Source of the DNA: Bacteroidota bacterium
GTDB taxonomy: Bacteria; Bacteroidota; Bacteroidia; Bacteroidales; NBLH01
Assembly (NCBI GenBank): GCA_025361565.1
Contig: JANYKN010000195.1
Span: 22,791 to 86,790 of the forward strand
DNA: 64,000 nucleotides
Direction of reading: 5' to 3'
Positions 13,101 to 29,312 of this stretch are shown here, one piece after another (the first letter of the stretch is position 1; each line of letters begins with the position of its first letter). Made by a program: the position numbers and the translations under genes. The notes beneath the pieces are model-generated. The model did no database searches. It was not told the DNA's origin and saw nothing but the letters and a program-made list of their open reading frames with translations.

Positions 13101-13313
13101 AGTTATATCTTTAAAATATTGAGTAAACATATCAGGTTTATCAGTTTCATGTTTTTCCTTCTTCTCAAGCTTTTCTTCACTTGATTTTTCCGTAAGTTTA
13201 TCCGATCGGTTTGCTAAATAATTTAAAACCTCTTTATTTATCACTAAAAATGATATCACAAAACCTAACGTTATTATAAGTATTGTCAATAAATATTTTT
13301 TTTTCATTTTCAT
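10101..13313 (-). CDS. BNR/Asp-box repeat (sortilin/VPS10-like) beta-propeller protein with T9SS C-terminal sorting domain
   Basis: About ten SxDxGxTW-type boxes (TTDGGSTWQ, SNDHGDTWV, STDAGDNWV, SVNGGATWT, SIDDGATWH...). C-terminus INIYPNPASSYIKFDL...GAYFISL...KTLIIKR is a T9SS type A CTD. Confidence 0.75.
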   Translation of the reverse strand: MKMKKKYLLTILIITLGFVISFLVINKEVLNYLANRSDKLTEKSSEEKLEKKEKHETDKPDMFTQYFKDITTRIGEKKSGYQMGYRTLELAKARQRLKNSNIINEILPWIQRGPANVGGRTRAIIVDPDDATHNTWFAGAVSGGIWKTTDGGSTWQNLSDNFTNLSISSLKMAQSNHNIIYAGTGESFPGGTDMVGNGIWKSNDHGDTWVQLMSTAINADFGYVNRIEVDPLNADIVLAATESGILKSINGGANWTKVYSSVNGVEDLVADPSDFNVLFGGDNSKGVLRSTDAGDNWVLSSSGLELGTRFEIAVSPVDHNNVFVSVNVSDTESKVYISNDNGINWKRFHNSQNFLGGQGDYDNTIEAHPYNADEVFVGGVDIWKLKFNGTEVTSSPLVKNAYTENTNFLTFVNFGGDFLGGGMSSTGGNNVLSTDWASIEIRFGAGLSQKAHRFTVPTQATSGVAAADYTYAGYVDVPFQVWDITNNRQLMVSFRDQEKDGAYNLYETTGSTYGLQGREYIFVNSVLYNGSAPDPNIAINGGHLYKNLYMFWPNLAKGSIWDEANLPDSKIVVEYGTVMLYNGEKTSIADSYGNYGGPNGYNQSAGFGKTVIPGIHPDHHNITIVPLGSGNFKIIDGNDGGLAISNDNGVTLNQLPNNYITTQFYGVAKNPVKNEYIGGMQDNGTWRSPSNEDASSLSKYLFQIGGDGFECLWHANNASYILGSVYNNSILKSVNGGATWTSATGITSGDGPFITRLSVSNAKPDLVFAVAGTGVYRSTNFGTSFVKKNISVNWSVNSTSTSSHHIEVSLANGKIVWAGAAMAKSAGLQLQVSTDEGLTFKAIEDYSLVSMNSYISGFATHPTEDSTAYALFSLSNSPKVLRTRDLGASWEDISGFGTNSQSSNGFPDVVVHSLLVMANNPDIIWVGTEIGLFESIDDGATWHYANNGLPPVSIYQMKRFGDQIVIATHGRGIWSVTIPGLNTGISNISSNNLINIYPNPASSYIKFDLDKKYKEYQVQIYTLNGQKVFSQRRNNAGNNSINVDFLREGAYFISLFYDDKKISKTLIIKR

Positions 13314-13320
13314 TATTTTA

Positions 13321-13776
13321 TTAATTATTGATCTGTTTTTTGTTAATCGGGATTTTATTTAATGTATTCAAATTTATCAAATATCGAATTTTCCCACTGT
13401 CATCCATTGAATTCTTTATTCCTCTCTGCTGAATAATCAATAAGAGTGAATCATTTTCCCATGAAATGTGAGCTCCTGCAATAGCATCTTCGTATACTAT
13501 TTTTTGTTTTTTTTCAGAAAAAACGAAGAACATGACAAGGCTATTTGGGTTTAACAATGTGTCTCTGTCAGTCTTCAGGCAAAGTACATAAGATTTACCT
13601 GGGCTTAAAGTGCATAAAGTATCGAGTTGATATTTTTCAAAAGCAAGTTGTTTGTAATTTGAATAAAAGTCTAAATTACTTGATTTTGGGTTAATACTTC
13701 TATTTATATTGCAAGAAGGTACAATAAACAGTGTATATAAAATAAAAACACGAACTATCTTTTTGCTGATATTCAT
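13321..13776 (-). CDS. hypothetical lipoprotein
   Basis: Signal/lipobox LFIVPSC. Ends 7 nt upstream of the BNR gene start, so probably co-transcribed. Confidence 0.45.
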   Translation of the reverse strand: MNISKKIVRVFILYTLFIVPSCNINRSINPKSSNLDFYSNYKQLAFEKYQLDTLCTLSPGKSYVLCLKTDRDTLLNPNSLVMFFVFSEKKQKIVYEDAIAGAHISWENDSLLLIIQQRGIKNSMDDSGKIRYLINLNTLNKIPINKKQINN

Positions 13777-13892: not shown

Positions 13893-14498
13893 TTAATATT
13901 TGATCCTTGGTAATAATTTACTCAATATCATTTCAACAGATTGCTCCAAAGATATTTCCTCTGTTCTTATTTCTATATCCGGATTTATAGGTTCTTCATA
14001 AGGAGCAGATATACCTGTAAACTCTTTAATTAACCCCTTTCGGGCTTTAGCATAAATCCCTTTGGTGTCTCTTCTCTCACAAGTATCCAGAGAAGTATTA
14101 ACAAAAATCTCAAAATAGTTTTCTTCGCCTACAATATTTCTTACTTGATCACGAATAAGTTGTGTAGGCGATATAAAACAATTGATCAGTACAATACCAC
14201 TCTCTAAAAATAATTTAGAAACTTCAGCTATTCGTCGAATATTCTCTTTTCTGTCGTTATCGGAAAAACCCAAATTATTGTTCAAACCTGTTCGAACATT
14301 ATCACCATCGAGCAATTTCGAAATATATCCTTTTTGATGTAATTCTAATTCCAATGCTCGTGCAATGGTCGATTTTCCACTTCCAGAAAGGCCGGTCAAC
14401 CAAACTACAACCGAGTGCTGATTTAATAATTTCTCTTTATCATTTCGTGTTAATATTTTATCAAAAATAGGGTGAATGTCTTTAGATTCAAAACTCAT
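13893..14498 (-). CDS. cysC: adenylyl-sulfate (APS) kinase
   Basis: VVWLTGLSGSGKSTIA P-loop, LDGDNVRTGLNNNLGFS, FISPTQ: the full canonical CysC core in 201 aa. Confidence 0.9.
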   Translation of the reverse strand: MSFESKDIHPIFDKILTRNDKEKLLNQHSVVVWLTGLSGSGKSTIARALELELHQKGYISKLLDGDNVRTGLNNNLGFSDNDRKENIRRIAEVSKLFLESGIVLINCFISPTQLIRDQVRNIVGEENYFEIFVNTSLDTCERRDTKGIYAKARKGLIKEFTGISAPYEEPINPDIEIRTEEISLEQSVEMILSKLLPRIKY

Positions 14499-14626: not shown

Positions 14627-15301
14627 ATGAAACAGTCTGCTAAATTAATACTCGGCATTTTTATATTTCTCATTTTTCTTTCTTGTAATAAAACCGATGA
14701 AAAGCCTGCAATTCCAGTTAGTGTAATTCCAAATGGAGATTTTGAAAATTGGGAAACATTATTTGATCTTGATAAACCGGTAGGTTGGGGCACTTCAAAT
14801 TTTTCATTATATGGGGTCGTAACTTTTAATACTGTTTCCAAAGATGGAATTGATAAACATTCTGGAAATTTCTCAACTAGACTTGAAACTGCAAGCCAAA
14901 TAGTCAACGATCAGGAAGTGAAGATAGTTGGTCTGATTACACTTGGAAATTTTGATGTTGATATTTCAACAAAAAAAGCAAAGATTTCTGGAGGCTTACC
15001 TTTCATAAGCAAGCCTGCCGAATTAAATGGTTATTATAAATATAACGCAGTTGGTTTTGACAGTTGTTTTTTCGATATAGCTATTACCAAATTCAATACT
15101 TCGTCTATGAAACAAGATACTATTGGACATGGAAAGTTCTCGTCCGGTTCTGTTTCATCATGGACTTCATTTAATGTACCCGTTAAATATTATTTAAATG
15201 AAATTCCTGATAGTATGAATATTGTAATTCTATCTTCCGACACAAGCATTTTCAATGCAGGATCAACTTTGTGGGTAGATGATTTACTGTTAAAATATTG
15301 A
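14627..15301 (+). CDS. PCMD-domain (putative carbohydrate metabolism domain) lipoprotein
   Basis: Lipobox FLSCN, then IPNGDFENWE...PVGWGTSN and C-terminal STLWVDDLLL, the pattern I associate with PCMD-domain proteins. Confidence 0.5.
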   Translation: MKQSAKLILGIFIFLIFLSCNKTDEKPAIPVSVIPNGDFENWETLFDLDKPVGWGTSNFSLYGVVTFNTVSKDGIDKHSGNFSTRLETASQIVNDQEVKIVGLITLGNFDVDISTKKAKISGGLPFISKPAELNGYYKYNAVGFDSCFFDIAITKFNTSSMKQDTIGHGKFSSGSVSSWTSFNVPVKYYLNEIPDSMNIVILSSDTSIFNAGSTLWVDDLLLKY

Positions 15302-15318
15302 TTTATAAAAAATTAATA

Positions 15319-17094
15319 ATGGAAAAATTGTTTTACAGCAAACTTTTTTTTGCTTTTTTTTGTATGTTTTTCAGTTTGGGCATACATTCTCAAATTTTAT
15401 ACATTTCTCCATACCCTAATTCACAATATAATAATCCTAAAACCAATATTATTATCAAGCTAGATTCAGAAATCCTTAATGCAGACGAATTAAGTGAAAT
15501 TTTTCAAATACGAGGGATTAATGGGAAAATCTATCCATATCATTTTAAGCTTGTTGATAAAGACAAGACTATTTTATTCAAAACAGATGTGCAGTTCGAA
15601 GATTTTGACACAATTGAAATCAAACTTTTAGACACACTATTTTTACATGGAAAAACCCTTGCGAGCTTAGAATATAAATTTAAAGTTTCAAACCAATTAA
15701 AAGAAGAGTTAGTTGTTAACAAGCAGGATCTTGTTGAATTTGAGGATCATTCATCCACAATACCTCCTAATTTCCCCTCCATTAACATCACAATTAATAA
15801 TAATCCTGCAAATGGTAAAATATTTTTCTACAATACTACTGCCTTAGCTTCAGATAACGACAGATATCTGGCTATTATTGATAATAATGGGATTCCCGAA
15901 TATTGGAGACAGGAAAATAATGCAGGTCTGAATTTCACGCTTCAGCCAAGTGGATATTTGTCTTTTTGGAATCACAATAGTTTCGTACTTATGGATTCAA
16001 ATTATAATATTACTGAAACTATTGCTTGTGGAAATGGCTACACTACTGATTTTCATGAGTTTATTCATTTGCCAAACAAACATTCATTTTTATTTGCATA
16101 TGATATGCAAATTATTGATATGAGTCAAATAATTCCAGGAGGTTATCCTTCTGCAAATGTTACTGGAATTGTTATTCAGGAACTTGATGAATATGAAAAT
16201 ATTGTGTTTCAGTGGCGAAGTTTTGATCATTTTCAAATTACTGATGCGGTAGATGTGGATTTGAAAAATAGTACAATATCTTATGTCCATGGAAATGGTC
16301 TGGCCATAGATACAGATGGAAACATATTACTTTCATCTCGATTATTAAATGAAATAACAAAAATCAATAGAACAACAGGTGATATTATGTGGCGACTCGG
16401 TGGCAAAAATAATCAGTTCAGTTTTATCAATGATCCTGAAATGTTTTGTAGGCAGCATCATATTCAGGTATTGAAAAATGGAAATATAACTATTTTCGAT
16501 AACGGAACTTGTCATTCCCCACAAATTACTACTGTAAAAGAATACAAATTAGATATTGAAAATAAAACAGCAGAACTAGTTTGGTCGTTTCATCATCCAA
16601 ATGGAATGTATTCTAACACTATGGGAAGCGCACAAAGGTTGGATAATGGAAACACTTTTATCAATTGGGGGATGATTGAAAACACTTCATTACCTAGCAT
16701 AACAGAGGTGAAACCGGATGGAACTATAGTATTTGAACTCAATTTCAACAACCAATTCCAATTGTTATATCGAAGTTTTCGTTATGTATGGGATAATAAA
16801 ATCTTTACTTCAATTGACAAAGTCGATGATAAAAATGAATATTTTAAAATATTCCCGAATCCTGCCTCGGAAAGTTTAAATATTTTAATTGATAAGCGTT
16901 TTTCCTCAGATGGTTCTATTGCTATAAATGATATAAAAGGGAATGTTGTTTATAAGCAGAATTTAACTTCCATAATTCAAAATAATGAAGTTTCAATTCC
17001 TATTGAGAATCTTCGTGATGGATTATATTTTATTACGATTACTAATAATGTAAACAGTAAAACAAAAATGTTTATTAAAATGGATAAAAATTAA
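15319..17094 (+). CDS. arylsulfotransferase (ASST)-family beta-propeller protein with T9SS sorting domain, paralog 1
   Basis: The ORF-track frame starts at a TTG (15298). I prefer ATG 15319 (MEKLFYSKLFFAFFCMFFSLGIHSQ signal). His-rich ASST-like blocks DFHEFIHLPNKH, VHGNGL and FCRQHHIQVLKNGNITIFDNG. C-terminus FKIFPNPASESLNI...GLYFITI...KMFIK is a T9SS CTD. Confidence 0.6.
   Translation: MEKLFYSKLFFAFFCMFFSLGIHSQILYISPYPNSQYNNPKTNIIIKLDSEILNADELSEIFQIRGINGKIYPYHFKLVDKDKTILFKTDVQFEDFDTIEIKLLDTLFLHGKTLASLEYKFKVSNQLKEELVVNKQDLVEFEDHSSTIPPNFPSINITINNNPANGKIFFYNTTALASDNDRYLAIIDNNGIPEYWRQENNAGLNFTLQPSGYLSFWNHNSFVLMDSNYNITETIACGNGYTTDFHEFIHLPNKHSFLFAYDMQIIDMSQIIPGGYPSANVTGIVIQELDEYENIVFQWRSFDHFQITDAVDVDLKNSTISYVHGNGLAIDTDGNILLSSRLLNEITKINRTTGDIMWRLGGKNNQFSFINDPEMFCRQHHIQVLKNGNITIFDNGTCHSPQITTVKEYKLDIENKTAELVWSFHHPNGMYSNTMGSAQRLDNGNTFINWGMIENTSLPSITEVKPDGTIVFELNFNNQFQLLYRSFRYVWDNKIFTSIDKVDDKNEYFKIFPNPASESLNILIDKRFSSDGSIAINDIKGNVVYKQNLTSIIQNNEVSIPIENLRDGLYFITITNNVNSKTKMFIKMDKN
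15418..15524 (+). repeat. 107-nt tract identical to 17844-17950 (core of the tandem duplication, copy A)
   Basis: Direct comparison: aattcacaatataataatcctaaaacc...cgagggattaatgg is letter-for-letter identical in both ASST genes, at an offset of 2426 nt. Confidence 0.9.
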
Positions 17095-17539
17095 AATAAT
17101 TAATCGTTCTAGATTAATTATCATATCTATAAAAAGTAATTATTTGTAAAATTTTACAGATAAGTATTGAGCAATAATCCTATTATTGGATTAATAAGTT
17201 GAAAAAATTGGTCAAGCGAATAGAGCAATAAAGCATTTAGCAGATTTATTCAAAGCAATTAAATGCGGTGAAACTCATTTATTAATAACCATGAGGATGT
17301 TCAAACATCTTGATTTAGTTACGTATAATGATTAAAACTATAATTCAAACTATGAAACAGGCATGTATCAATAAGTCAAAATTAATTGAAAGACCAATTC
17401 AATTTTAATTAATATATAAGTAAACAAATTATCTGAAACGCCAATAGATATATGTTAAAACTTTTCGAAAATTTAGCAGATGCTTTAATCCTGAGATTTA
17501 AAGCTATAGTAAAACTTATTAACAAATAAAAAAAGATCT

Positions 17540-17727
17540 AAGAGTTTATAAAAATTTCCAAATCTGTTTTGAGTAAGGAGCCAGCACCGTTTTCATCTAA
17601 TATACATTATAAATGTTATTTGACTAAAAGCTTTGATATTAAGAATATTGCAATCTCATCATGTGTTATCAGTATTTTTAATTTCGGCTTCACTTAATTG
17701 ATTGTTGATTAATTGTTATAATATTGA
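17540..17727 (+). pseudogene. decayed remnant of a second PCMD-domain gene
   Basis: At the same 2426-nt offset the region translates as ...PAPFSSNIHYKCYLTKSFDIKNIAISSCVISIFNFGFT*LIVD*LL*Y*. The intact gene reads ...SSWTSFNVPVKYYLNEIPDSMNIVILSSDTSIFNAGSTLWVDDLLLKY*. That is about 45 percent identity with three in-frame stops. The 5' limit is uncertain and may extend toward 17100. Confidence 0.7.
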
Positions 17728-17744
17728 TTATTAATAACTCAGAA

Positions 17745-19514
17745 ATGATAAAAATGAATTACATCAGACTTTTATTCATGATTTCTTTTATATTCTATCA
17801 AATTGCTATCCAATCACAAGTTCTTTACTTATCCCCATATCCCAATTCACAATATAATAATCCTAAAACCAATATTATTATCAAGCTAGATTCAGAAATC
17901 CTTAATGCAGACGAATTAAGTGAAATTTTTCAAATACGAGGGATTAATGGAAAAATCTATCCATATCATTTTAAGCTTGTTGATAATGACAAGACTATTT
18001 TATTCAAAACAGATGTTCAATTCGAAGATTTTGACACAATTAAAATCAAACTTTTAGACACTCTATTTTTACATGGAAAGACCCTTACGAGTCTAGAATT
18101 TAAATTCAAAGTTTCAAAACAATTAAAAGAAGAGTTAATCGTTAACAAGCAGGATTTTGGTGAATTTGAGAATCATTCATCTGTAATACCTCCTAATTTC
18201 CCCTCCATTAATATCACAATTAATAATAATCCTGCAAATGGTAAAATATTTTTTTATAATACAACTGCCTTGGCATCGAATAATGACAGATACCTTGCTA
18301 TAATTGATAACAATGGAATTCCTGAATATTGGAGACAGGAAAATAATATTGGTCTAGATTTTACACTTCAACCAAGTGGATATCTTTCATATTGGAATGG
18401 AGGGAATTTTGTTATCATGGATTCCACTTATAATATTATTAAAACAATTGGATGCCAGAATGGATATACCGCAAATTTTCATGATTTTATACATTTAAAA
18501 AACGGGCACTCTTTTTTATTATCATGGGATAATCAAATAGTAGACATGAGTAAGATAGTTCAAGGAGGTTATCCTTCTGCTCAAGTTGAAGGTCTTGTTA
18601 TTCAGGAACTCGATGAAAATCTAAATGTTGTATTTCAATGGAGAAGTTGGGATCATTTTAAAATTACAGATGCTGAAGATATTGATTTTACAAGCAATAT
18701 AGTTAGCTATGTTCAAGGAAACGCTTTATATATAGATAGAGATGGCAACATTTTACTTTCTTCAAGGGTAATAAATGAAATTACAAAAATTAATAGAGCC
18801 ACTGGTGAAATTATGTGGAGACTTGGCGGAAAAAACAATCAATTTAATTTTATTAATGATCCTGAAATGTTTTGCAGACAGCACCATATCCAGGAACTTG
18901 ATAATGGAAATATTACAATCTTCGACAATGGTACTTGTCATGTTCCGTTATTAACAACCGTAAAAGAATATAACTTAGATACTGCTAACAGAATAGCAAA
19001 TCTTGTATGGTCATATCATCACCCTAATAATATGTTTTGTAGCAACATGGGCAGTGCGCAAAGATTAGAAAACGGGAATACTTTTATCAATTGGGGTTAT
19101 ATCAAAAAATCATGTCCCAGCATAACAGAAGTAAAGCCCGATGGAACCATTACTTTTGAGCTCTATTTTAATAATGAATTTGAATTGTTATATAGAAGTT
19201 TTAGGTTTGTATGGGATAATAAGTTTAACACTTCTATCAGCAATATCGATTTTCAGATTGATGATTTTAAATTGCAACCAAATCCTGTTTTTGAAAATTT
19301 GAACATCGCTTTTGATAAAGGTTTAATTCCTGGCAATGTTATAAGTTTGCATGATATAAAAGGTAATGTTGTATACACGCAGAATTTAACTGCTATAATT
19401 CAAAAAAATATTTCACTTCCTGTGGCTTATCTCCCTGAAGGAGTCTACTTTTTAACAATAAGTAATAGTAAATATTTCAAAACCAAAATGTTTATTAAAA
19501 TGAATAACAAATAA
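17745..19514 (+). CDS. arylsulfotransferase (ASST)-family beta-propeller protein with T9SS sorting domain, paralog 2
   Basis: The track frame starts at TTG 17724. ATG 17745 or 17754 (MNYIRLLFMISFIFYQIAIQSQ signal) is more likely. Same His-rich blocks (NFHDFIHLKNGH, FCRQHHIQELDNGNITIFDNG). C-terminal T9SS CTD FKLQPNPVFENLNI...GVYFLTI...KMFIK. Confidence 0.6.
   Translation: MIKMNYIRLLFMISFIFYQIAIQSQVLYLSPYPNSQYNNPKTNIIIKLDSEILNADELSEIFQIRGINGKIYPYHFKLVDNDKTILFKTDVQFEDFDTIKIKLLDTLFLHGKTLTSLEFKFKVSKQLKEELIVNKQDFGEFENHSSVIPPNFPSINITINNNPANGKIFFYNTTALASNNDRYLAIIDNNGIPEYWRQENNIGLDFTLQPSGYLSYWNGGNFVIMDSTYNIIKTIGCQNGYTANFHDFIHLKNGHSFLLSWDNQIVDMSKIVQGGYPSAQVEGLVIQELDENLNVVFQWRSWDHFKITDAEDIDFTSNIVSYVQGNALYIDRDGNILLSSRVINEITKINRATGEIMWRLGGKNNQFNFINDPEMFCRQHHIQELDNGNITIFDNGTCHVPLLTTVKEYNLDTANRIANLVWSYHHPNNMFCSNMGSAQRLENGNTFINWGYIKKSCPSITEVKPDGTITFELYFNNEFELLYRSFRFVWDNKFNTSISNIDFQIDDFKLQPNPVFENLNIAFDKGLIPGNVISLHDIKGNVVYTQNLTAIIQKNISLPVAYLPEGVYFLTISNSKYFKTKMFIKMNNK
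17844..17950 (+). repeat. 107-nt tract identical to 15418-15524 (copy B)
   Basis: See copy A. The perfect identity starts just after the divergent signal peptides. Confidence 0.9.
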
Positions 19515-19562: not shown

Positions 19563-20657
19563 CTAAATATCGTAATTGTCATAAATAAATTTAAAATCTT
19601 CTCTGATTTTTGATTCTATCAATCCAAACTCTTCGAGTGAATATATATGGCCACTTTTGAAAGATTTCTGTTTGTTTTCCTGATCAACAATTCTAGAGGA
19701 TAACTCCTCGGATCTCTCCAATTCAAGAAACTCAATCAAACGATACATCGACCCAGTAAAATCATGTTTGATATCTTTGTAATTTAGCACCATCAGGCTT
19801 TTTGAATTTATTCCATTTTGTTGAAGGGTTTCATGTAACTCTTTGTAAAAAAACAAAGATGCCCCATACAAATTTTTATAAAAAAGTTGTTTTGTATTTT
19901 CATTCAATGAATCAAAATTGAACAATTTTTGTAATAAGCCTTTAATTAATGACATACTCGAAGGAATTACCTCCAATGGATCTCTCAATAATAATATAAT
20001 TCTGGCGCTTGGAAAATTTTCTAAAAGTAGGTTTATATTAATTATTAGTGAAAAAGACTTAGAAAACATTATTTTATTACTTCTTTTGTCTTCAAAAAGG
20101 TTTTTTTTATGAAGTTTTTTTAAATAAATTAAGGATTGCTCAATTTTTGTATGATAAATTAGATCTTTTTCTAATTCAGCGGTATTCTCAAAATTTGAAA
20201 ATGCCCTAAAATAAAGCCAGAAAAAAAGACCTTCAAATGAATTAAAAAATAAAGCCACATCATCTGTTTCCGCTTCCAATAGACCGGTTTTGTGTATTTC
20301 AGGATTGTATAATTTTTTTTTGCTTATTTTATCAAGGTAAGGAATAAATGATTTCAAGAGCTTTCTGTATGTAATAGAGGGAATAATCATTTCCCACAAA
20401 TACATTCCTCTATATTGCAGGTTATTGAGTAATAAAAACCGATGCAAAAATGTAGTTCCGCTCCTTGGATGACCAATTAAAAATACAGGTTTATCATTTC
20501 TTATTTTTATATAGCCATTAAAAAAAATAAAATCGAAAATATCTCCCAAAACAAGGAATAATTTTAGAAATGAACGGAGAACTATTATAACTAAAAGTTT
20601 AAACCATGGAAGTGGTGAACGAGCAAGTGATGAAATTTTTGCATAAAGATTTCTCAT
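19563..20657 (-). CDS. PAPS-dependent sulfotransferase family protein with hydrophobic N-terminal segment
   Basis: 5'-PSB loop LIGHPRSGTTFLHRFL and 3'-PB-like LLLRDPLEVIPSS. N-terminus PWFKLLVIIVLRSFLKLFLVLGDIFDFIFF is hydrophobic. The start lies 1 nt after the upstream stop. Confidence 0.7.
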   Translation of the reverse strand: MRNLYAKISSLARSPLPWFKLLVIIVLRSFLKLFLVLGDIFDFIFFNGYIKIRNDKPVFLIGHPRSGTTFLHRFLLLNNLQYRGMYLWEMIIPSITYRKLLKSFIPYLDKISKKKLYNPEIHKTGLLEAETDDVALFFNSFEGLFFWLYFRAFSNFENTAELEKDLIYHTKIEQSLIYLKKLHKKNLFEDKRSNKIMFSKSFSLIININLLLENFPSARIILLLRDPLEVIPSSMSLIKGLLQKLFNFDSLNENTKQLFYKNLYGASLFFYKELHETLQQNGINSKSLMVLNYKDIKHDFTGSMYRLIEFLELERSEELSSRIVDQENKQKSFKSGHIYSLEEFGLIESKIREDFKFIYDNYDI

Positions 20658-20658
20658 A

Positions 20659-21690
20659 TTAACATTCCCAAATTGCAGCTCCAGTAACCATAGAAAAACC
20701 GGCAGCAGCAGCGTTAAAAATTAATTTATTGCCATTAATTAATCCAGTAGTTTTCAATATGTGGTCCATGGTCATTGGAATACTAGAATTGATCGTATTC
20801 CCATACAAATGATGTATAATTGGAGCTTTCTCTATTGGAACACCAATTGCGTGGCAAATATTTTGGATTATCTTCTTACTTGGCTGATGGGCTATGAAAT
20901 AATCTATGTCACTTATTTTCCAACCAATTCTTTCCAAAATATTATTTATTTCAATAGGAACATTCTCCAATCCCAAATCAAAAATCTCTTTACTTGATGA
21001 CTGAAATTTTCTTAGATCAACAGGTACTTTGCATATATTATAAGAATTAGGGAGTGAAGTGTTTTGCATATCCAACAATCTGGCTCCTCCATTTTTAAGT
21101 GGCTTCTTTGTAAGCAACCAAGCTGATGATCCTCCACCCAACGTTAATCCTGCAGATTTGAAAGATAAATCAGCAAAAGATTGGATATCATAATTAATTG
21201 CTTCATCCGGGAAGTCTGTAGTACAACAAAGTGCCGTATTAATTCTGTTGTTCGCCCGCATGAGTGATGCAGCTACCTGAACAGATTGAAGCAACCCAGC
21301 GCAAGCATCAGTGACGTCAAAGGCTGACACTTTCTTAATTCCTAATCTCGCAGCAATTTCCATCGCTGTAGCAGGTTCAAAATATTCACGATATACTCCA
21401 CCATATATAACTAAATCGATACTTGTAGGATCAACTTGATTCGACTCACAAACTCTTTCTGCAACCTCAATTGCATAATCAATTGGGCTTTTTCCTTCCT
21501 CCAGACCAAGAAACCTGACTTGTGTATTGCAATATTTGAATACAAAAGAGATCCCAACTTTAATTTTTTTCCATTCGTCTTGAGTACCATTAAAATTTGA
21601 AAAAACCTTTTCGATTATTTGATCATTAGTAATACAATTCTGTGCAAATTTCACATCAGGTGCAGATAAATATATGGGAATATTAAACAT
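20659..21690 (-). CDS. FabH-like (KAS III family) condensing enzyme
   Basis: Cys-His-Asn triad contexts are present: FDVTDACAGLLQS, FIAHQPSKKII and YGNTINSSIPM. 343 aa. Confidence 0.7.
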   Translation of the reverse strand: MFNIPIYLSAPDVKFAQNCITNDQIIEKVFSNFNGTQDEWKKIKVGISFVFKYCNTQVRFLGLEEGKSPIDYAIEVAERVCESNQVDPTSIDLVIYGGVYREYFEPATAMEIAARLGIKKVSAFDVTDACAGLLQSVQVAASLMRANNRINTALCCTTDFPDEAINYDIQSFADLSFKSAGLTLGGGSSAWLLTKKPLKNGGARLLDMQNTSLPNSYNICKVPVDLRKFQSSSKEIFDLGLENVPIEINNILERIGWKISDIDYFIAHQPSKKIIQNICHAIGVPIEKAPIIHHLYGNTINSSIPMTMDHILKTTGLINGNKLIFNAAAAGFSMVTGAAIWEC

Positions 21691-22243
21691 TTAAACTTTT
21701 TAAATTAGTGGATAAAGACTTTTTTTTCAATATTAGAAATGTGCGATATTATATATTTATTCTTAAGTCGCATACTATAGAATAAAAGTTGTAATAATAT
21801 TAGAAGAAAAACACTAAAATTAAACGTTGGAAATAAATTATTTTTTACAAATAATTACAGACAGCCTAATTAAGTATCCTTATTATTTTTTTAATCGTCA
21901 TTCATTTATTCAAAACCCAATTATTGAGATCAACTAAGTTGAAACAATATAATGAAGATTACAAAAATATTAAATTTTATTCTAAATTTTAAAACAGACT
22001 ATAATTCATACTTAATTAACGTAATAAACAGTAGTTGACTTTGGAATATTGGCAATATATAAAAACTCGAATCTTGTCGTAGGATCTTATATCGAATTTA
22101 CTAATCCTAACATTAACTATTCTAATGTTTAATACAAGATTCCAAACGATCCAACACTCTAGTTAGATGTTCATAAAACATCCTTTCCTCCCAACTAATA
22201 AAGTGATTATTATCAAGCTAATAATGTATCCAAACAAGATAAT

Positions 22244-22274
22244 ATAAAAAAAGCTACCCCAAAAGGGGCAGCTT
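22244..22274 (-). terminator. rho-independent terminator of the SusC/D operon
   Basis: Stem agctacccc (22252-22260) / ggggcagct (22265-22273), with one G-U pair on the minus strand and loop aaaa. A T-run follows on the minus strand (plus-strand A-run 22246-22251). Lies 26 nt past the stop. Confidence 0.7.
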
Positions 22275-22299
22275 TAAATAAGAATTCTTAATATTCAGT

Positions 22300-23595
22300 T
22301 TATTTTAAAACTGGCTTATCATTAAGATTGAGTGTTTTATGACCTTGACTTTTTTTAGGAAGTCCAGCAGGATCCAAAGTTAGAACAGCTGTAAATGTAG
22401 GTTTAGTTGCATAACCATAATCAAACATCCATTGTCCAAGATCAAAAGTACCTTGTATTAAAGTATATTCGATTGTCATAAGGGTATATGGTCCACTATT
22501 ATCAATTACACCAGTTCCTTGAATATGATAAGGAGTCTGTAAAGCACCTTTATAGGTGGTTTGGCAATACACTTGATTAGCTATGTCTAAAGTTGCACCA
22601 TTGTCAGTGTAAACACAAGTACCTCCAGAAACAATAACCTCACCCCAAAAATCTGACATCCAACCAAAAACCAAGCCGGTCATAATCTGGCCAGTACAAT
22701 TCTGAGAAGTTGTTACTTCGCTTGTGTAACCACCATCATCACCAAACCAGGTAACAACTGGAGGTGTAACATAAGAAACCTCACGAGTAATTGTATAGAC
22801 AGCACCCACTTTAGTAACCTTTGCTAAATTTGTACGAAAAACAGAACATGGAGTTTCATTGGTCATTACACTTGCAAATTCCATTTTTTCATTGATTATA
22901 CCCAATTGAGTAAAATCCAATGTTAAGTTTAGAGTAACAGGAGCATTTAAATCACCAAAATCCAATGTTGCTAAAAGATCTACAGCAATGATGTAATCAC
23001 CATCAGGCAAATTTTTGAAATTCTCATATAATGCATCAGCAGATTTTGAGGTATTTGCAAAATCAACAATTGAATTATCAGAAGGATCAACAATTAATAA
23101 TCGCATATCTACAACATCTTTAGGTGCAAGATCTACTCCAATAGAAGATAAAACATCTGTAGTTGTTGTTAATGCAATAATCATTTTTGGATTTGTTCCG
23201 TTAACTGCAGTAAATGAATAGGTTTCGCTGCTGGTCTTAACACCTCTGGAGTCGAGTATTTCAACTCTCCAATAATAGGTTTGTCCATCTATTACATCTA
23301 CAGTTATTGTTTGCTTATTGTAAGCAGATTGTAAAAGTGCAGGTGATTTACCTGTACCAAAATAAACGTCCCAAGCAACTGCATCACCTCCGGTATTTTC
23401 AGAAGTCCATGTCAAATCAACAGTTGAACCAGTAAAGAAGAGTGTTCCATCCGCATTCACAACCGGTGAGGTTGCCACAGGTTGCGTAAATGCCTGTTTT
23501 ACTTCAAATACACCATCCTCTTGTTTACAACTTTGCATTGTAAGTAGGCCGGATACTAAAAGCAACATTATGATTAAAATATTTTTTCTTTTCAT
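22300..23595 (-). CDS. hypothetical surface lipoprotein (PUL-encoded, Ig/Fn3-like N-terminal domain)
   Basis: Lipobox LLTMQSC. Segment TVDLTWTSE...AWDVYFGTG...GQTYYWRVEILDSRG...YSFTA resembles an Fn3/Ig-like glycan-binding module. It is the last gene of the susCD operon. Confidence 0.45.
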   Translation of the reverse strand: MKRKNILIIMLLLVSGLLTMQSCKQEDGVFEVKQAFTQPVATSPVVNADGTLFFTGSTVDLTWTSENTGGDAVAWDVYFGTGKSPALLQSAYNKQTITVDVIDGQTYYWRVEILDSRGVKTSSETYSFTAVNGTNPKMIIALTTTTDVLSSIGVDLAPKDVVDMRLLIVDPSDNSIVDFANTSKSADALYENFKNLPDGDYIIAVDLLATLDFGDLNAPVTLNLTLDFTQLGIINEKMEFASVMTNETPCSVFRTNLAKVTKVGAVYTITREVSYVTPPVVTWFGDDGGYTSEVTTSQNCTGQIMTGLVFGWMSDFWGEVIVSGGTCVYTDNGATLDIANQVYCQTTYKGALQTPYHIQGTGVIDNSGPYTLMTIEYTLIQGTFDLGQWMFDYGYATKPTFTAVLTLDPAGLPKKSQGHKTLNLNDKPVLK

Positions 23596-23644
23596 AAAAT
23601 TTAATTTATTAATGTATCTATTCTTTCAATAAGAATCCAATAAT

Positions 23645-24577
23645 CTATAACCTCGTATTTGTTTCACGAATATACCGTGGAGTTGCATTATAGGAATAGT
23701 ATAATTCAAAGGTTTTGGTTACCGGATTGTAATAATTCATAGGATCACCTTTGTAAGTGCTATATTGAACAGTACCAACATTTGCAGCACCATCATCCAA
23801 CTGTAGGTTACAAAGATAAACGTCAACACCACCTACATTTATTGTGTTGGAAGTTACCTGTATTTGAAGATTATAACCTGTATAATCACCAGCCTGTGTT
23901 TTTTTAACAGTTGTTAAATCAACAGTGGTCAAATTAAGTTTCAAATCGAAAGGTAAAATTCCAAGAGAAGGATGGTTTCTAAATCCTTGTGACAAATATT
24001 GCCCTTCATATGCATTGGCAATTGGTAATCCTACCAAAACTGTTTTCACGTTTTCTGCGATTACAACGCCTCCAGATGCAGAAGTGATTGTTATGGCTTT
24101 CATATAATTACCAGCTACCTGAACTGTATCAGCTCTGTTAACTTTAAACCTAACAACTCCAGTTCTGCTACCTGCAGGTATAGTTATAGTAGGATCCAAA
24201 AGTTCAGCACCCGGATATGGCTTATAATCATTCCAAATAAGAACACCTGTTGGAGCTGTTTTAGTAGTATCACCGTTTGCAATAGCAGCAGCTTTTAAGG
24301 TTGAGTCATATGCGGCAATTGCTGCATCATCAAACTCGAAAGTTAAAGTAGTAGCTTGACCAGGAACAGCATCTGTAGCAATATTAACCGCAACCTCAAT
24401 GATTACATCATCAGGAGCAATTTGCAAACTATTGGCCCTAAAACCAGCTTTTAAAAAAGTAGCATACATTTTCCCGGCAACATCATCTTTCCAATAATCA
24501 TGGTCATCTTTCAAGCAAGAACTTAAGACAAAAATGCCTGCCAGGAAGATAAATAGAATAGCTATTTTATTTTTCAT
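23645..24577 (-). CDS. DUF1735/DUF4361-type SusD-adjacent lipoprotein
   Basis: Lipobox VLSSC. 310 aa, located immediately after susD. The beta-rich two-domain layout is typical of these PUL accessory proteins. Confidence 0.5.
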   Translation of the reverse strand: MKNKIAILFIFLAGIFVLSSCLKDDHDYWKDDVAGKMYATFLKAGFRANSLQIAPDDVIIEVAVNIATDAVPGQATTLTFEFDDAAIAAYDSTLKAAAIANGDTTKTAPTGVLIWNDYKPYPGAELLDPTITIPAGSRTGVVRFKVNRADTVQVAGNYMKAITITSASGGVVIAENVKTVLVGLPIANAYEGQYLSQGFRNHPSLGILPFDLKLNLTTVDLTTVKKTQAGDYTGYNLQIQVTSNTINVGGVDVYLCNLQLDDGAANVGTVQYSTYKGDPMNYYNPVTKTFELYYSYNATPRYIRETNTRL

Positions 24578-24611
24578 ATTTTTTTTATGTTTAAATTAAA
24601 ATCATTGATAA

Positions 24612-26129
24612 TTAACGGTTCTGCCAGAATATTTTAGATGCAAAGGCGTCAATTGTTCCAACCTTTAAAAGTTGATCATTGTTTGTTGAAATTTCAGTTT
24701 GTGGATACAACAAACGTACAGGAGGTGTAGCGTTTAATGCATCAGGATCCGGGCTAAAGCTCAAAATCGAAGGATACCCAGTTCTTCTGTAATCTGTCCA
24801 GATTTCAACAGGTGCAATACCATTTAAAGCTGCCCATTTTTGGGTAATGATTAATTCCAGTTTATTAGGAGCTAAAGTATAACTTACTTTATTATTTTCC
24901 TGTGAAAAATAATTATATGCATCACCACTAGGAAAACCCATATAAATAAATGATTGGGTAACAGCAGCTTCATAAAGAGCTTGGGCATCACCAACAATTA
25001 AACCTCTTTCAGCAGCTTCTGCCTGAATAAACAAACTTTCGAAATCAGTTAATAACGGTGCTGATTTAGAAGGTGTACCAATCATTGTTGTTGGATCTTC
25101 AGGATCAGAAGCGTAACCAAGTTGTGATGTTGTAGCAGCTGATTTTAAATTTGCAGCATTTGTACCGAAAATATTACCACCATATACTGCAGAAGTAGTA
25201 GAAGTAGATTTGAAGAATTTTCCAATACGTGGATCTAGTGTTGATTGATAATAATCAAGGACATCAGATCCTGCAAAATAATATGAAGTTGCATCAGATT
25301 GTGCACTACCAGACTCATTATAAAAAGTTTCGTAAAATGGGTTCATTTTAGTTGCAGAAGAAAGAAATCCAGGATTAACCAAACCACCTTCACCTGCACC
25401 AATATAACCAATTGAAGCAGTTGTAGCAATAGCATCATTAATATATGTATCTCTGCCAGCCATATCAGATTGGTGCAATAAAATACGCAATTTCAAAGTG
25501 TTTGCAAATTTTAACCACAAATCCATATTACCGGCATACATGATATCACTGTTAGCAGGTATTAAACTTGCATCAACAGGAGCATTTTGAATTAGATCCA
25601 TGGCAGCATCAAGCTGTACAATCAAATCTTCATAAATACCTTGCTGTGCATCGTATTTTGGTTTCATATTATGCAAAGCATCAAATGCCTCAGTATAAGG
25701 AACATCTCCCCAACAATCCACTAAATTCTGAAACATATAGGCTTTCAATATTTTAGCAACTGCCAAATAGTTTGCCTCTTTAGCATCAACTGAAGAAACT
25801 TGTTCAATCTCAGTCAAATTTTGGCCAATTAGGTAAAAAGAATTAAAAGCTCCCTGATAACTACTATTTAAAAGCTTATATTGAGTCAAAAATATTGGTT
25901 GAGTATAACCGGCACTAATTGACCATTGGCCATACCATAGATAAACAAATTCAAAATTTCGCGGACTATCCATAACCCTTGCCATACTGTTGATTGCATT
26001 AGGCAACAACAAATTTGTAGGAACTTTTGAAGCATTATTTGGATTCACTTCGTTAACCGAAAGAAAATCCTTGCATGAGCTTCCGAAAAGTATTGCTACA
26101 AATAATAATATTATGATATTTTTATTCAT
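24612..26129 (-). CDS. susD: SusD/RagB family nutrient-binding outer membrane lipoprotein
   Basis: Lipobox LFGSSC, 505 aa, TPR-like helical content. C-terminal ...IWTDYRRTGYP...RLLYPQTEISTN is typical of the SusD-like_2 type. Starts 19 nt downstream of susC. Confidence 0.85.
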   Translation of the reverse strand: MNKNIIILLFVAILFGSSCKDFLSVNEVNPNNASKVPTNLLLPNAINSMARVMDSPRNFEFVYLWYGQWSISAGYTQPIFLTQYKLLNSSYQGAFNSFYLIGQNLTEIEQVSSVDAKEANYLAVAKILKAYMFQNLVDCWGDVPYTEAFDALHNMKPKYDAQQGIYEDLIVQLDAAMDLIQNAPVDASLIPANSDIMYAGNMDLWLKFANTLKLRILLHQSDMAGRDTYINDAIATTASIGYIGAGEGGLVNPGFLSSATKMNPFYETFYNESGSAQSDATSYYFAGSDVLDYYQSTLDPRIGKFFKSTSTTSAVYGGNIFGTNAANLKSAATTSQLGYASDPEDPTTMIGTPSKSAPLLTDFESLFIQAEAAERGLIVGDAQALYEAAVTQSFIYMGFPSGDAYNYFSQENNKVSYTLAPNKLELIITQKWAALNGIAPVEIWTDYRRTGYPSILSFSPDPDALNATPPVRLLYPQTEISTNNDQLLKVGTIDAFASKIFWQNR

Positions 26130-26147
26130 TTTTTTTATATTTTAATT

Positions 26148-29100
26148 TTAGAAAGTAAGTTTTACACTAAAACCAAAAATTCTTGTTGGAGGTGTTTGGT
26201 TCTCATTTGTATTACCAACAGCATTGGATGTTGCACCTGAAGTATTAAACTCTGGATCTGTCCAAACATTGGTTTTTGGTCGGAACATCAATAAGTTTCT
26301 TCCGATTAAAGAAACATTTGCTTCCCTGATAACTTTACCACCCCAAAGTTTACTTACCGGTACATCATAAGATATAGAAACCTCTCTCAATTTCCAGGTT
26401 GCAGCACTGGTTACATAAGCCATTTGTGTAGTATGATAATCTGAATTTACCCAAAATGCTCTCGATGCATCAGGAACCACAACATCTGTATTTGGAACAA
26501 ATACACCAGGAGAAGTTTCAATTACAGAATTTGGAATTACAAATGGTTGACGTCCGTTTAAAGTAGAATGTTCAGAAACGCCAGTAAAATCAAGAGAATT
26601 ACCAACTGCATTATGAATATTGTTTCCTGTACGATATTCAGCAACTATTGTTAATCTTATACCTTTATAAGAAAGATCAGTTGAAACACCTAAAATATGA
26701 TTTGGGTTACCATGTCCTGCTTTTTGAAGAGCTGGTTCTTTTTTAGGTAATCCAGTTTTTGCATCAACAATGATGCGTCCATCAGGATCACGTTGAACAT
26801 CAGTTACTTTTAAAGTAGGGAATTGTTCACCAACAACAGCATAAGCTACATCACCAATAAACAACTCATCTAATCCAGGCATAAGAGAAAGCAACTTTGA
26901 CTCTTGATAAGTATAGTTAATACCTGCATTCCACACTAAACCACCAACTTGAATAATAGGAGTAAATTTCAAATCTACTTCAACACCTTTATTTTCCATC
27001 TCACCAGCATTAATTGTTGCTACACTATATCCAGTTGAGGCAGATATAACAGCAGGGATGGTTTGATCGTTTGTAGTGCCTTTGTAAATATTGGTTTCCA
27101 AATGAATTCTGTTTTTAAGGAAACTCATTTCAATACCAGCTTCCATATCAGTTGTAATCTCAGGCTTTAATGTTGGATTACTTAAGTTGGTGCTTGATCT
27201 AAAACCGGCAACACTTCCGTATGGAAATCCTGTTCCTGCAAAGTACTCAGGTATAGTTGCATACCAATTGGTAAGTGCAACTTGACCTGTTTTTGACCAT
27301 CCAGCCCTAACTTTAAGGAAAGACAAAACTGTATTGTCTTTTAATGCGGGAACCATATCAGAAACAATAAAAGCAACGTCAACAGCAGGATAGAAGAACG
27401 AGCGATTATCCTGAACCAATCTTGAATCCCAGTCATTACGACCTGACATGTGCAAAGAAACAAATTCTTTATATCCTACAGTAAGATCACCAAACACACC
27501 AACAGAATTTCTTTTTAGTACATATTGCGCAATAGTTGCTTCGCCAACACGGTTACTAACGTTGTATAAGTCAGGTATTACAAGAGATGAAGCAGCATCA
27601 TAAATTGAATTGTCCTGCTGAGAGTATATTGAAACACCAGCAATGGCTTTCATCTTAATATCCCCAAATTGCTTGTCGCTAATTGCTAAAAAGTCATTTG
27701 TTAATATCATAGAAGAAGTCATTTGATCATAAGAATTACCTGCATAAGGAGATAATGTACCCATATGTCCTTGACTCCAAGGATCACCTTTTGAATAATC
27801 GCTATAAACAGCCTCATCAGTATAACCATTGTAATTAATGGTATTATAAACAATACCAGAACGGTTGGTTAACTGTAACCAATTTGTAGGATTAACTGTA
27901 AAGTTTAAAGAACCCAACAAGTCATTTCGTTTTGTTAAAGCACGAGAATGTTCAATTTGCCAATAAGGGTTAGGATAGTAAGCATTGAAATATCCATCAA
28001 GAGCAGCAAACTTATTGTTCACAATATCTTTATATGAAGTTAACGGAACATGTGCTGGAGTATTTAAAACATTCCAATAAACACCACGATTCTGGTTCAT
28101 ATCACCACCTGAAACATTGGTATTTGTTTGAGTAAAACCAAGTGTGAAATTAGTTTTAAAGATACCATATTCTCTTCCTGCAGACATACGTGCACTTGTT
28201 CTTCTATTTTTATCTCCAGGAACAGTTCCGGTGCTTTTCACATCCTGAACAGAAACATAAAAATCACTTCTTTCATCTCCACCGCTTAAGGAAACGTCGT
28301 TCTGCATAGAAACTCCTGTTTGAAAGAAATTCCTTTTTTGATTTTTAACAGGACTAAAAGGAACCATTTGGTATGAACCATCTTCTAATTTACCACCCAA
28401 TATTCTCATGGAACCATCATATTCAGGACCATAGCTTTGGTTTTCGTATGAAGTGTAAGGATCTGTATTTCTATCAGGACCAATCCACATAGTGTAATTA
28501 TTGTCAGCATTTCCAAGGCTCTCACCAGAACCAGAAGCAAAACGTTCTTGTAAATTTGGAAGATACGAAATTCTTTCAAAGTTGGTTGTGTTGCTCACTT
28601 TTACAGTAAGTTTATCTTTGCCACCTTTTTTGGTAGTAACCACCAAAACTCCATTTGAAGCGTCGTTACCATACAAGGCAGCAGCACTAGCACCTTTCAA
28701 TACGTTAACATTTTCAATGTCGTTTGGATTGATTGAGTTCAGATAAGTAGCACTGATAGGCACACCATCCAAAACAACCAAAGCCTGGTTACTAGCTAAC
28801 AAGTGACGATTACCACGCAATGTGATTTTGGTTTCAGGATTAACACCATTACTAATGGTATTGATTTGCAAACCTGATACCTTACCTGCTAAACCATTCA
28901 TTACGTTTGAAACACCTGCATTTGTAAGTTCTTTTTCAGACACTTTATAGGTTGCAACCCCCATTTCTCTAGGATTTCTTTTGATACCAAAAGCAGTTAC
29001 AACAACGTCACTAATGGCAATATCACTGCTTTGCATTGCAGCATTTACCACATCACCAGTTATAGCAACTTCCTGTGTTACCATTCCCATAAACTCAAAA

Positions 29101-29312
29101 ACAAGTGTGTTTGATCCTTCAGGAACAGCTAATGAATAGCCACCATTCAAATCAGTTAGCGTACCCAATTGTGTGCCTTTAACCAACACGGAAACACCAG
29201 GCAAACCCATTCCATCGTCGGCACCAGTAACAGTACCCGTAACGGTTCGCTGTGCAAATACCTGCATACTTAGAAAACCTATGCATGCAAAAAGTATTAA
29301 TACTTTTTTCAT
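26148..29312 (-). CDS. susC: SusC/RagA family TonB-linked outer membrane protein
   Basis: Signal peptide, CarboxypepD_reg-like domain (VTGTVTGADDGMGLPGVSVLVKGT...DLNGGYSL), plug domain, and a 22-strand barrel-sized C-terminus ending ...FGFSVKLTF. Confidence 0.9.
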   Translation of the reverse strand: MKKVLILFACIGFLSMQVFAQRTVTGTVTGADDGMGLPGVSVLVKGTQLGTLTDLNGGYSLAVPEGSNTLVFEFMGMVTQEVAITGDVVNAAMQSSDIAISDVVVTAFGIKRNPREMGVATYKVSEKELTNAGVSNVMNGLAGKVSGLQINTISNGVNPETKITLRGNRHLLASNQALVVLDGVPISATYLNSINPNDIENVNVLKGASAAALYGNDASNGVLVVTTKKGGKDKLTVKVSNTTNFERISYLPNLQERFASGSGESLGNADNNYTMWIGPDRNTDPYTSYENQSYGPEYDGSMRILGGKLEDGSYQMVPFSPVKNQKRNFFQTGVSMQNDVSLSGGDERSDFYVSVQDVKSTGTVPGDKNRRTSARMSAGREYGIFKTNFTLGFTQTNTNVSGGDMNQNRGVYWNVLNTPAHVPLTSYKDIVNNKFAALDGYFNAYYPNPYWQIEHSRALTKRNDLLGSLNFTVNPTNWLQLTNRSGIVYNTINYNGYTDEAVYSDYSKGDPWSQGHMGTLSPYAGNSYDQMTSSMILTNDFLAISDKQFGDIKMKAIAGVSIYSQQDNSIYDAASSLVIPDLYNVSNRVGEATIAQYVLKRNSVGVFGDLTVGYKEFVSLHMSGRNDWDSRLVQDNRSFFYPAVDVAFIVSDMVPALKDNTVLSFLKVRAGWSKTGQVALTNWYATIPEYFAGTGFPYGSVAGFRSSTNLSNPTLKPEITTDMEAGIEMSFLKNRIHLETNIYKGTTNDQTIPAVISASTGYSVATINAGEMENKGVEVDLKFTPIIQVGGLVWNAGINYTYQESKLLSLMPGLDELFIGDVAYAVVGEQFPTLKVTDVQRDPDGRIIVDAKTGLPKKEPALQKAGHGNPNHILGVSTDLSYKGIRLTIVAEYRTGNNIHNAVGNSLDFTGVSEHSTLNGRQPFVIPNSVIETSPGVFVPNTDVVVPDASRAFWVNSDYHTTQMAYVTSAATWKLREVSISYDVPVSKLWGGKVIREANVSLIGRNLLMFRPKTNVWTDPEFNTSGATSNAVGNTNENQTPPTRIFGFSVKLTF

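Follow-up and report, generated by a model that had tools for sequence, protein, structure and literature searches.

In the caprazamycin producer Streptomyces sp. MK730-62F2, pyrones made by the type III polyketide synthase (PKS) Cpz6 are sulfated by Cpz8, an enzyme that depends on 3'-phosphoadenosine 5'-phosphosulfate (PAPS); the sulfated pyrones then act as donors for the aryl-sulfate sulfotransferase (ASST) Cpz4 (Tang et al. 2013, Nat Chem Biol 9:610, cited after PMC4257720 and PMC13426309). Here we describe a locus that, as far as these citing accounts go, follows the same three-part logic, read in our case from genes: a condensing enzyme, an apparently PAPS-dependent sulfotransferase and a nearby ASST. 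It lies in a stretch of 64,000 nucleotides (the window in what follows; contig JANYKN010000195.1, positions 22,791 to 86,790) from a Bacteroidota bacterium of the order Bacteroidales (assembly GCA_025361565.1), and contains two adjacent genes, one for a condensing enzyme of the KASIII superfamily (KAS) and one for a sulfotransferase (ST). We put at about one half the probability that this pair forms the donor-making arm of a sulfation in two steps, comparable to that of Cpz6, Cpz8 and Cpz4, with an enzyme resembling OleA and PpyS in place of the type III PKS.

As in the caprazamycin case, ST and ASST are encoded together, the ST gene and two ASST genes lying within 5 kb. The presumed scaffold maker, in contrast, is a KASIII-superfamily thiolase and not a type III PKS. 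An antibiotic gene cluster is lacking, the ASSTs are predicted to be secreted by the type IX secretion system (T9SS) and are paired with a PCMD-domain lipoprotein, and the KAS-ST pair also occurs without any ASST in other phyla. A second described system, the adp cluster of Streptomyces davaonensis (PMC12135136), makes sulfated lipophilic phenols and brings together a condensing enzyme, a sulfotransferase (AdpST) and a dedicated PAPS supply (CysC/D/N), a combination that our locus appears to share. Unlike our locus, adp uses a type III PKS and has no ASST, and its sulfated alkylresorcinols are end products.

The KAS-ST gene pair

The pair and the DNA upstream of it consist of the following features (window coordinates).

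20659-21690, minus strand: KAS gene, encoding a 343-aa condensing enzyme of the KASIII superfamily, predicted to be of OleA/PpyS type (Pfam, NCBIfam, alignment, hhalign, AlphaFold2 model, tree)
19563-20657, minus strand: ST gene, encoding a predicted 364-aa PAPS-type sulfotransferase of the Stf1/Stf9 kind (Pfam, invariant residues, AlphaFold2 model, Foldseek)
20655-20661, minus strand: operon junction TAA-T-ATG, made up of the KAS stop, one nucleotide and the ST start (direct reading)
21691-22249, minus strand: AT-rich non-coding leader or promoter region of the KAS-ST operon (no open reading frame; fraction of guanine plus cytosine (GC) 0.24-0.26)
22250-22275, minus strand: terminator-like hairpin closing the upstream SusC/D operon (11-bp stem with 6 GC pairs, followed by a T-run)

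The junction reads GAATGT TAA T ATG AGA, the stop codon occupying 20661-20659, the lone T 20658 and the start codon 20657-20655. Direct reading confirms the one-nucleotide gap given in a preliminary description of this DNA, which had been made from the sequence alone. The same description had taken the two genes for one functional unit, and comparison with other genomes bears this out. A word-index search returned 209 relatives of the KAS protein, and when 185,579 species, each represented by a single genome, were scanned, a KAS relative turned up in 398 stretches, from which we fetched 80 loci: 10 from Bacteroidota, 30 of Myxococcota type, 38 from Actinomycetota and 2 from Aminicenantes. In 64 of the 80, representing all four phyla (Bacteroidota, Aminicenantes, Myxococcota and Actinomycetota), the ST start lies between -8 and +17 nt from the KAS stop. 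Because this spacing is kept so widely, the pairing is beyond chance, and the sequence comparison speaks for a conserved operonic functional unit. Five further loci have an ST gene within 10 kb, not directly downstream of KAS. The first three contexts that were looked up, in metagenome-assembled genomes of a Bacteroidales, an Aminicenantes and a Myxococcota bacterium, each have ST directly 3' of KAS. The carriers comprise Bacteroidales, Aminicenantes, lineages of Myxococcota type, and Mycobacterium and other Actinomycetota.

The KAS family itself is small and well delimited, since among 1.84 billion cluster representatives (50% identity), all of them scanned, only 35 family matches reached E ≤ 1e-30. 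Within the source genus the gene is found in 4 of 12 genomes; the 49 genomes searched from other families of this order all lack it. The Aminicenantes KAS (L020 / P0026) falls inside the Bacteroidales clade beside P0016 (support 100/98), which reflects either a transfer between phyla or a mis-binned contig.

The strong hairpin at 22250-22275 parts the two genes from the SusC/D operon upstream, making KAS-ST a transcription unit of its own. The leader between this terminator and the KAS start (21691-22249) is 560 nt long and has about 24% GC. An Rfam search of the locus, including 21691-22249, gave no family matches. A scan of the leader for sigma-70 promoters gave a count at chance level, the sigma-70 consensus being unsuited to Bacteroidota, and the promoter is left unassigned.

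The preliminary description had also pointed to a contrast in GC content between the two genes. Its spot counts were roughly right, the ST gene having 27.9% GC and the KAS gene 35.4%, with single 60-nt lines at 17-38% and 23-52%, respectively, but the contrast carries no signal. GC at third codon positions (GC3) is nearly equal in ST and KAS (0.244 and 0.262), and the 12 genes measured in and around the cluster all fall between 0.20 and 0.28, so that the difference between the two genes stems from amino-acid composition and is uninformative on origin. The idea of a low-GC island or foreign origin for the region at 13.3-20.7 kb was dropped for the same uniformity of GC3.

The condensing enzyme

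KAS matches the Pfam families ACP_syn_III_C (2.8e-21) and ACP_syn_III. Its catalytic triad, C130, H268 and N298, is present and invariant in 21 members of the family alignment, in agreement with the earlier remark that the contexts of Cys, His and Asn are kept. The preliminary description had called the enzyme FabH-like. This places it correctly in the KASIII superfamily; as a label it is too coarse, since the Glu base of OleA and PpyS is present.

Two described enzymes make this residue informative. OleA E117 and PpyS E105 are the bases for a non-decarboxylative head-to-head condensation; the exchange E105A in PpyS abolishes pyrone formation, and MxnB and CorB carry Val at this position (PMC4578411). 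As the OleA reference we used the Xanthomonas campestris sequence, which is 100% identical to residues 7-344 of PDB 3row_A. Alignment of KAS with it by hhalign (probability 99.7) pairs E105 with E117, C130 with C143, H268 with H285 and N298 with N315 (published OleA numbering), so that KAS has an OleA-type catalytic Glu beside the triad; a pairwise segment alignment agrees. The motif REYFEPATA, which contains E105, is unchanged in all 21 family members, and when the alignment is widened to 23 sequences with more distant representatives among them, a Glu still occupies this position almost without exception (at least 90%). A segment search among solved structures found Glu in OleA and F or M in four KASIII-type proteins deposited as 3-oxoacyl-ACP synthase III.

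By family score, KAS matches the ACP_syn_III and OleA models and not the chalcone-synthase family. Its best NCBIfam match is NF006720, which we equate with the OleA family because X. campestris OleA scores 477.6 bits on it; KAS reaches 142.4 bits, below the cut-off of 285. The AlphaFold2 model of KAS (predicted local distance difference test, pLDDT, 89) has its best query-normalised template-modelling (TM) score with OleA, 0.88, compared with 0.80-0.84 for FabH structures. For a phylogeny, which the preliminary description had proposed, one OleA and the genome's own KASIII paralogues served as outgroups. In the maximum-likelihood tree the KAS family is monophyletic (100/98), and OleA lies on its side of the split from five FabH-type paralogues (99/97).

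KAS thus shares with OleA (PDB 3row, 4kti) the thiolase fold, the triad and the Glu base within R-[DE]-Y-[LF]-E-P-x-T-A. It differs from OleA in its low identity (about 19%), in an N-terminal region of about 65 residues that is peculiar to the family and in its partner, which is a sulfotransferase and not OleBCD: oleB, oleC and oleD are absent within about 10 kb and among the conserved neighbours in the 80 loci, the rest of the genome lying outside this search. With PpyS and PyrS of Photorhabdus and Pseudomonas, KAS agrees in the residues of the published description (C129, H281, N310 and E105 in PpyS; C130, H268, N298 and E105 in KAS; PMC4578411). These are stand-alone enzymes, with a type of product that would carry the hydroxyl an ST needs. 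Unlike KAS, PpyS has no known sulfotransferase partner, and its products are signals or antibiotics and not sulfate carriers.

It could be argued that KAS is a spare FabH that primes fatty-acid synthesis and is a chance neighbour of an unrelated ST. The superfamily, the fold and the intact Cys/His/Asn triad are indeed those of FabH, and FabH structures match the model well. KAS, however, scores far under every FabH cut-off (104.7 bits on TIGR00747, cut-off 292.1; 128.7 bits on the KAS III model NF006829, cut-off 249), while two true FabH genes elsewhere in the genome (L001 and L002) reach 363 and 370 bits on TIGR00747. By residues, we expect of a FabH the triad, its His within HQAN, and a hydrophobic residue at the dimer-interface position (F87 in E. 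coli). KAS has HQPS for HQAN and Glu for Phe or Met, whereas the five other KASIII paralogues of the genome, two of which are the true FabH proteins, have HQAN and no Glu at the E105 position. The separate clade and the pairing kept in 64 of 80 loci contradict a spare FabH further, and we therefore give this explanation next to no credence. In line with the earlier statement that KAS is not embedded in a fab operon, a Pfam search of the neighbours found no ACP (acyl carrier protein), FabG, FabZ or FabF within about 10 kb of the pair, but BNR/T9SS, adenosine 5'-phosphosulfate (APS) kinase, PCMD, two ASST, SusC/D, FeoAB and FTCD genes. The preliminary description had allowed for KAS clustering with housekeeping FabH and being the only FabH in the genome; neither is so. 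By its sequence, KAS is an OleA/PpyS-like head-to-head condensing enzyme outside the curated OleA family, and not a FabH.

The sulfotransferase

ST matches Sulfotransfer_3 (2e-19; 71.1 bits, cut-off 27) and Sulfotransfer_1. A helical N-terminal extension (residues 1-55) precedes the 5'-phosphosulfate-binding (PSB) loop, GHPRSGTT at 62-69, and the 3'-phosphate motif RDP...S follows at 225-233; the PRSGTT loop, R225 and S233 are invariant among ST homologues. With the AlphaFold2 model (pLDDT 90), the best Foldseek matches are 2zq5 (Stf1 of M. tuberculosis) and 2z6v (Stf9 of M. avium), with TM-scores of 0.63-0.66 over 337-360 columns and E 1e-11, whereas the ST domains of CurM and Ols, the tyrosylprotein sulfotransferases and the cytosolic SULTs each give a TM-score below 0.4. 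ST thus has the family score, PSB loop, 3'-phosphate motif and fold of a PAPS-dependent sulfotransferase, and it looks like a competent enzyme of the mycobacterial Stf1/Stf9 type. The likeness to Stf1 and Stf9 extends over the full length, including the N-terminal helices, at an identity of 17-20%. Homologues of ST are annotated merely as "sulfotransferase" or, by one source, the Joint Genome Institute, after the activity of Stf3. To our knowledge, neither Stf1, Stf9 nor Stf3 has been described as paired with a condensing enzyme.

The preliminary description had proposed that ST is membrane-associated, and had named a mis-called start, and hence a shorter soluble protein, as the finding that would speak against this. 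The start codon is correct, since 19 of 22 homologues, mycobacterial ones included, retain the stretch of about 61 residues ahead of the PSB loop, with D42 invariant. The hydrophobic segment of about 30 residues also stands (residues 16-46, ahead of the PSB loop; Kyte-Doolittle 19-mer maximum 2.29), and in Bacteroidota members the hydropathy of the helix is at transmembrane level. A transmembrane anchor is nevertheless disfavoured. The N-terminal helix always contains 1-3 charged residues and is much less hydrophobic in mycobacterial members, and the N-terminal helices of ST superpose on those of crystallised Stf1 and Stf9 (Foldseek). In addition, three positive charges precede the helix, so that by the positive-inside rule an anchor would leave the domain that uses PAPS on the non-cytoplasmic side.

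In CurM and Ols, elimination that is activated by sulfate is established chemistry, which suggests a different use of the pair: KAS would make an OleA-like 2-alkyl-3-keto acid, housekeeping enzymes would reduce it, and ST would sulfate the beta-hydroxyl for decarboxylative elimination to an olefin, replacing OleC and OleB in the manner of the ST and thioesterase domains of CurM and Ols. The OleA-type Glu and triad and the absence of oleBCD-like genes from the cluster would fit such a hydrocarbon route. The best sequence match of ST among solved structures would fit as well, since it is retinol dehydratase (3.7e-06), an enzyme that sulfates and then eliminates. Yet the pair has neither a reductase nor a thioesterase as a conserved neighbour, the fold of ST bears little likeness to the ST domains of CurM and Ols (TM-scores of 0.34-0.35, against 0.63-0.66 for Stf1 and Stf9), and the route leaves the ASST, APS kinase and exporter neighbours unexplained. 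We consider it very improbable.

Sulfation genes around the pair

Beyond the 3' end of the ST gene, the window contains a group of genes, several of which bear on sulfation.

17724-19514, plus strand: ASST2, PAPS-independent aryl-sulfate sulfotransferase with signal peptide and T9SS C-terminal sorting domain (Pfam Arylsulfotrans 1e-21, Por_Secre_tail 1.4e-8)
15298-17094, plus strand: ASST1, 73% identical to its paralogue ASST2, likewise with signal peptide and T9SS tail (Pfam, N-terminus)
14627-15301, plus strand: PCMD-domain lipoprotein, a conserved ASST partner in Bacteroidota (Pfam PF13201, lipobox)
13893-14498, minus strand: APS kinase, CysC (Pfam 1.3e-63)
13321-13776, minus strand: small lipoprotein of 151 aa, co-directional with cysC (lipobox)
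10101-13313, minus strand: BNR/sortilin-like T9SS-secreted protein of 1070 aa, co-directional with cysC (Pfam)

ASST2 is convergent with the ST gene, at a gap of 48 nt. The solved structure closest to ASST1 is that of an unpublished Streptomyces sp. ASST (9kf4/9kf6, E 3e-31) rather than that of the E. coli enzyme. In the source genome, which is 98% complete, the sole APS kinase gene, the sole two ASST genes and the sole Sulfotransfer_1/Sulfotransfer_3 gene all lie in this cluster, within 8 kb. The CysH of the genome (L095:1420-2112, contig C19), whose gene adjoins that of CysD, has two motifs of the iron-sulfur type of APS reductase, CC...CxxC and ECGLH, so sulfate assimilation should not need PAPS. 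The APS kinase of the cluster then probably serves ST, and, on this sequence evidence, we presume that it is its dedicated PAPS supplier.

The preliminary description could assign the pair to no known Bacteroidota pathway. A precedent does exist in the two-step sulfation by Cpz6, Cpz8 and Cpz4, and the APS kinase and ASST genes, which lie outside the segment considered then, point to it.

Some further observations concern the surroundings. ASST1 and ASST2 are separated by 630 nt (17095-17723). A homologue of the BNR/T9SS protein also adjoins KAS-ST in a locus fetched twice, as L008 and L012, and in L022. Directly upstream of KAS (22300-29312) lie a SusC/SusD pair and two lipoprotein genes with no enzyme gene among them, and SusC and SusD homologues are also found near the KAS-ST-ASST cluster in 5 of the 10 Bacteroidota loci. 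These Sus neighbours hint at a glycan or other imported substrate linked to the sulfation genes.

ASST genes beside the pair in other genomes

The association with ASSTs recurs outside the window. ASST and PCMD genes adjoin KAS-ST, on either side, in 9 of the 10 Bacteroidota loci. Within the source genus, ASST genes are present in exactly the 4 of 12 genomes that carry KAS, each about 2 kb or less from the pair, whereas other Sulfotransfer_3 genes are spread more widely than KAS and ASST. An ASST-like gene also occurs within the fetched flanks of 13 of the 30 Myxococcota-type loci. All 6 of these that were checked by Pfam are true ASSTs, and 3 of them abut the KAS start on the same strand. In one locus (L059) the gene order is KAS-ST-ASST-CysC.

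The Myxococcota-type loci have further neighbours in common: genes for DUF1302, MMPL, LolA-like and FadL/TodX-like proteins and for APS kinase fusions of CysNC size lie near the pair. In L076:7990-12028, L085:6294-7160 and L070:17400-18995, the DUF1302 barrel, MMPL, LolA-like and FadL/TodX-like genes stand beside KAS, sometimes between KAS and ST. The DUF1302/MMPL/LolA-like/FadL set looks like a system for envelope-spanning export of a lipophilic product.

Discussion

Together, these comparisons suggest a model in which the KAS-ST operon probably makes a lipophilic sulfate ester. C130 of KAS would be acylated, and E105, contributed by the partner subunit, would remove the alpha-proton; as in OleA and PpyS, the resulting carbanion would attack a second thioester, either acyl or beta-ketoacyl, with no decarboxylation. 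With a beta-ketoacyl thioester as second substrate, the product would be a 3,6-dialkyl-4-hydroxy-2-pyrone, whose ring could close with no further enzyme. Spontaneous closure would explain why reductase or tailoring genes are not conserved beside the pair. ST would then sulfate the enolic hydroxyl with PAPS made by way of the cluster's APS kinase. The activated sulfate ester would leave the cytoplasm and, judging by the neighbourhood and the caprazamycin precedent, donate its sulfuryl group to ASST1 and ASST2, which as T9SS-secreted enzymes would have no access to PAPS. In Bacteroidota and Myxococcota, the sulfate ester may feed exported ASSTs in this way. A sulfated lipophilic product, with a pyrone among the options, had already been proposed in the preliminary description, and this is a reasonable reading.

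Several points weigh against a donor-making role. No ASST gene was found near the pair in any of the 38 Actinomycetota or 2 Aminicenantes loci, and four genomes of these phyla that were searched whole have no ASST anywhere, so donor supply cannot be the universal role of the pair. The Bacteroidota cluster has no exporter gene. The choice of a pyrone over a beta-keto acid is a guess from the need for a hydroxyl and the lack of a conserved reductase. As to the enzyme itself, Foldseek E-values against the KAS model are similar for FabH and OleA structures, the tree has long branches and a single OleA on one of them, and the likeness to PpyS is indirect, by way of OleA and published residues. Moreover, the carrier genomes counted here are related and hence are not independent samples.

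The same loci speak for another explanation, namely that a sulfated lipid or signal, such as an envelope sulfolipid or a diffusible pyrone-sulfate, is the end product, and that the ASSTs act elsewhere or modify or recycle it. In addition to the absence of ASSTs in two phyla, 28 mycobacterial loci (Actinomycetota, among L039-L091) have as third gene not an ASST but one for a secreted repeat protein of about 494 aa (for example L054:3393-4877), which has one N-terminal hydrophobic segment, is repetitive and rich in Thr, Gly and Asp, and gives no Pfam matches. The MMPL-type exporters near the pair in Myxococcota-type loci agree with an exported end product, and there are precedents in the alkylresorcinols of adp and in the pyrones of PpyS type, which are quorum signals (PMC4578411). 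On the other side stand the adjacency of ASST genes in two phyla with differing gene orders, the perfect co-occurrence with KAS within the genus, and the concentration of all sulfation genes of the source genome in one cluster. On balance we regard the end product as an unlikely general explanation, though one to be taken seriously. For the Actinomycetota and Aminicenantes, where the sulfate ester is probably the final compound, it is likely to hold, and in the source genome it is possible.

Returning to the donor-making arm, we suggest, tentatively and with less confidence than the arm itself, that the OleA-like enzyme and ST form a scattered module for a lipid-soluble sulfuryl carrier, an extracytoplasmic stand-in for PAPS. 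Such a carrier would be loaded in the cytoplasm, exported (in Myxococcota, by the products of the MMPL, LolA-like and DUF1302 genes) and used by exported ASSTs on acceptors at the surface or in the environment.

The three-part sulfation logic is already known from one Streptomyces pathway; the version with an OleA/PpyS-like enzyme and a sulfotransferase is new, and our literature search found no paper that links the two. Among the head-to-head condensing enzymes that bear the Glu, the KAS family appears as a distinct branch of small size, partnered with a sulfotransferase. Bacteria of the gut and of the environment commonly have ASSTs, which also find use as biocatalysts, and passages of a 2026 review (PMC13426309) describe their natural substrates and physiological roles as poorly understood. 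The sole genuine ASST donor known so far comes from one Streptomyces antibiotic pathway. A compact gene pair that recurs beside exported ASSTs in two phyla offers a direct experimental entry to this problem, and it directs attention to the extracellular targets of the secreted Bacteroidota ASSTs. If our reading is true, the carrier would be the physiological donor that has long been sought for those bacterial ASSTs that lie outside antibiotic pathways.

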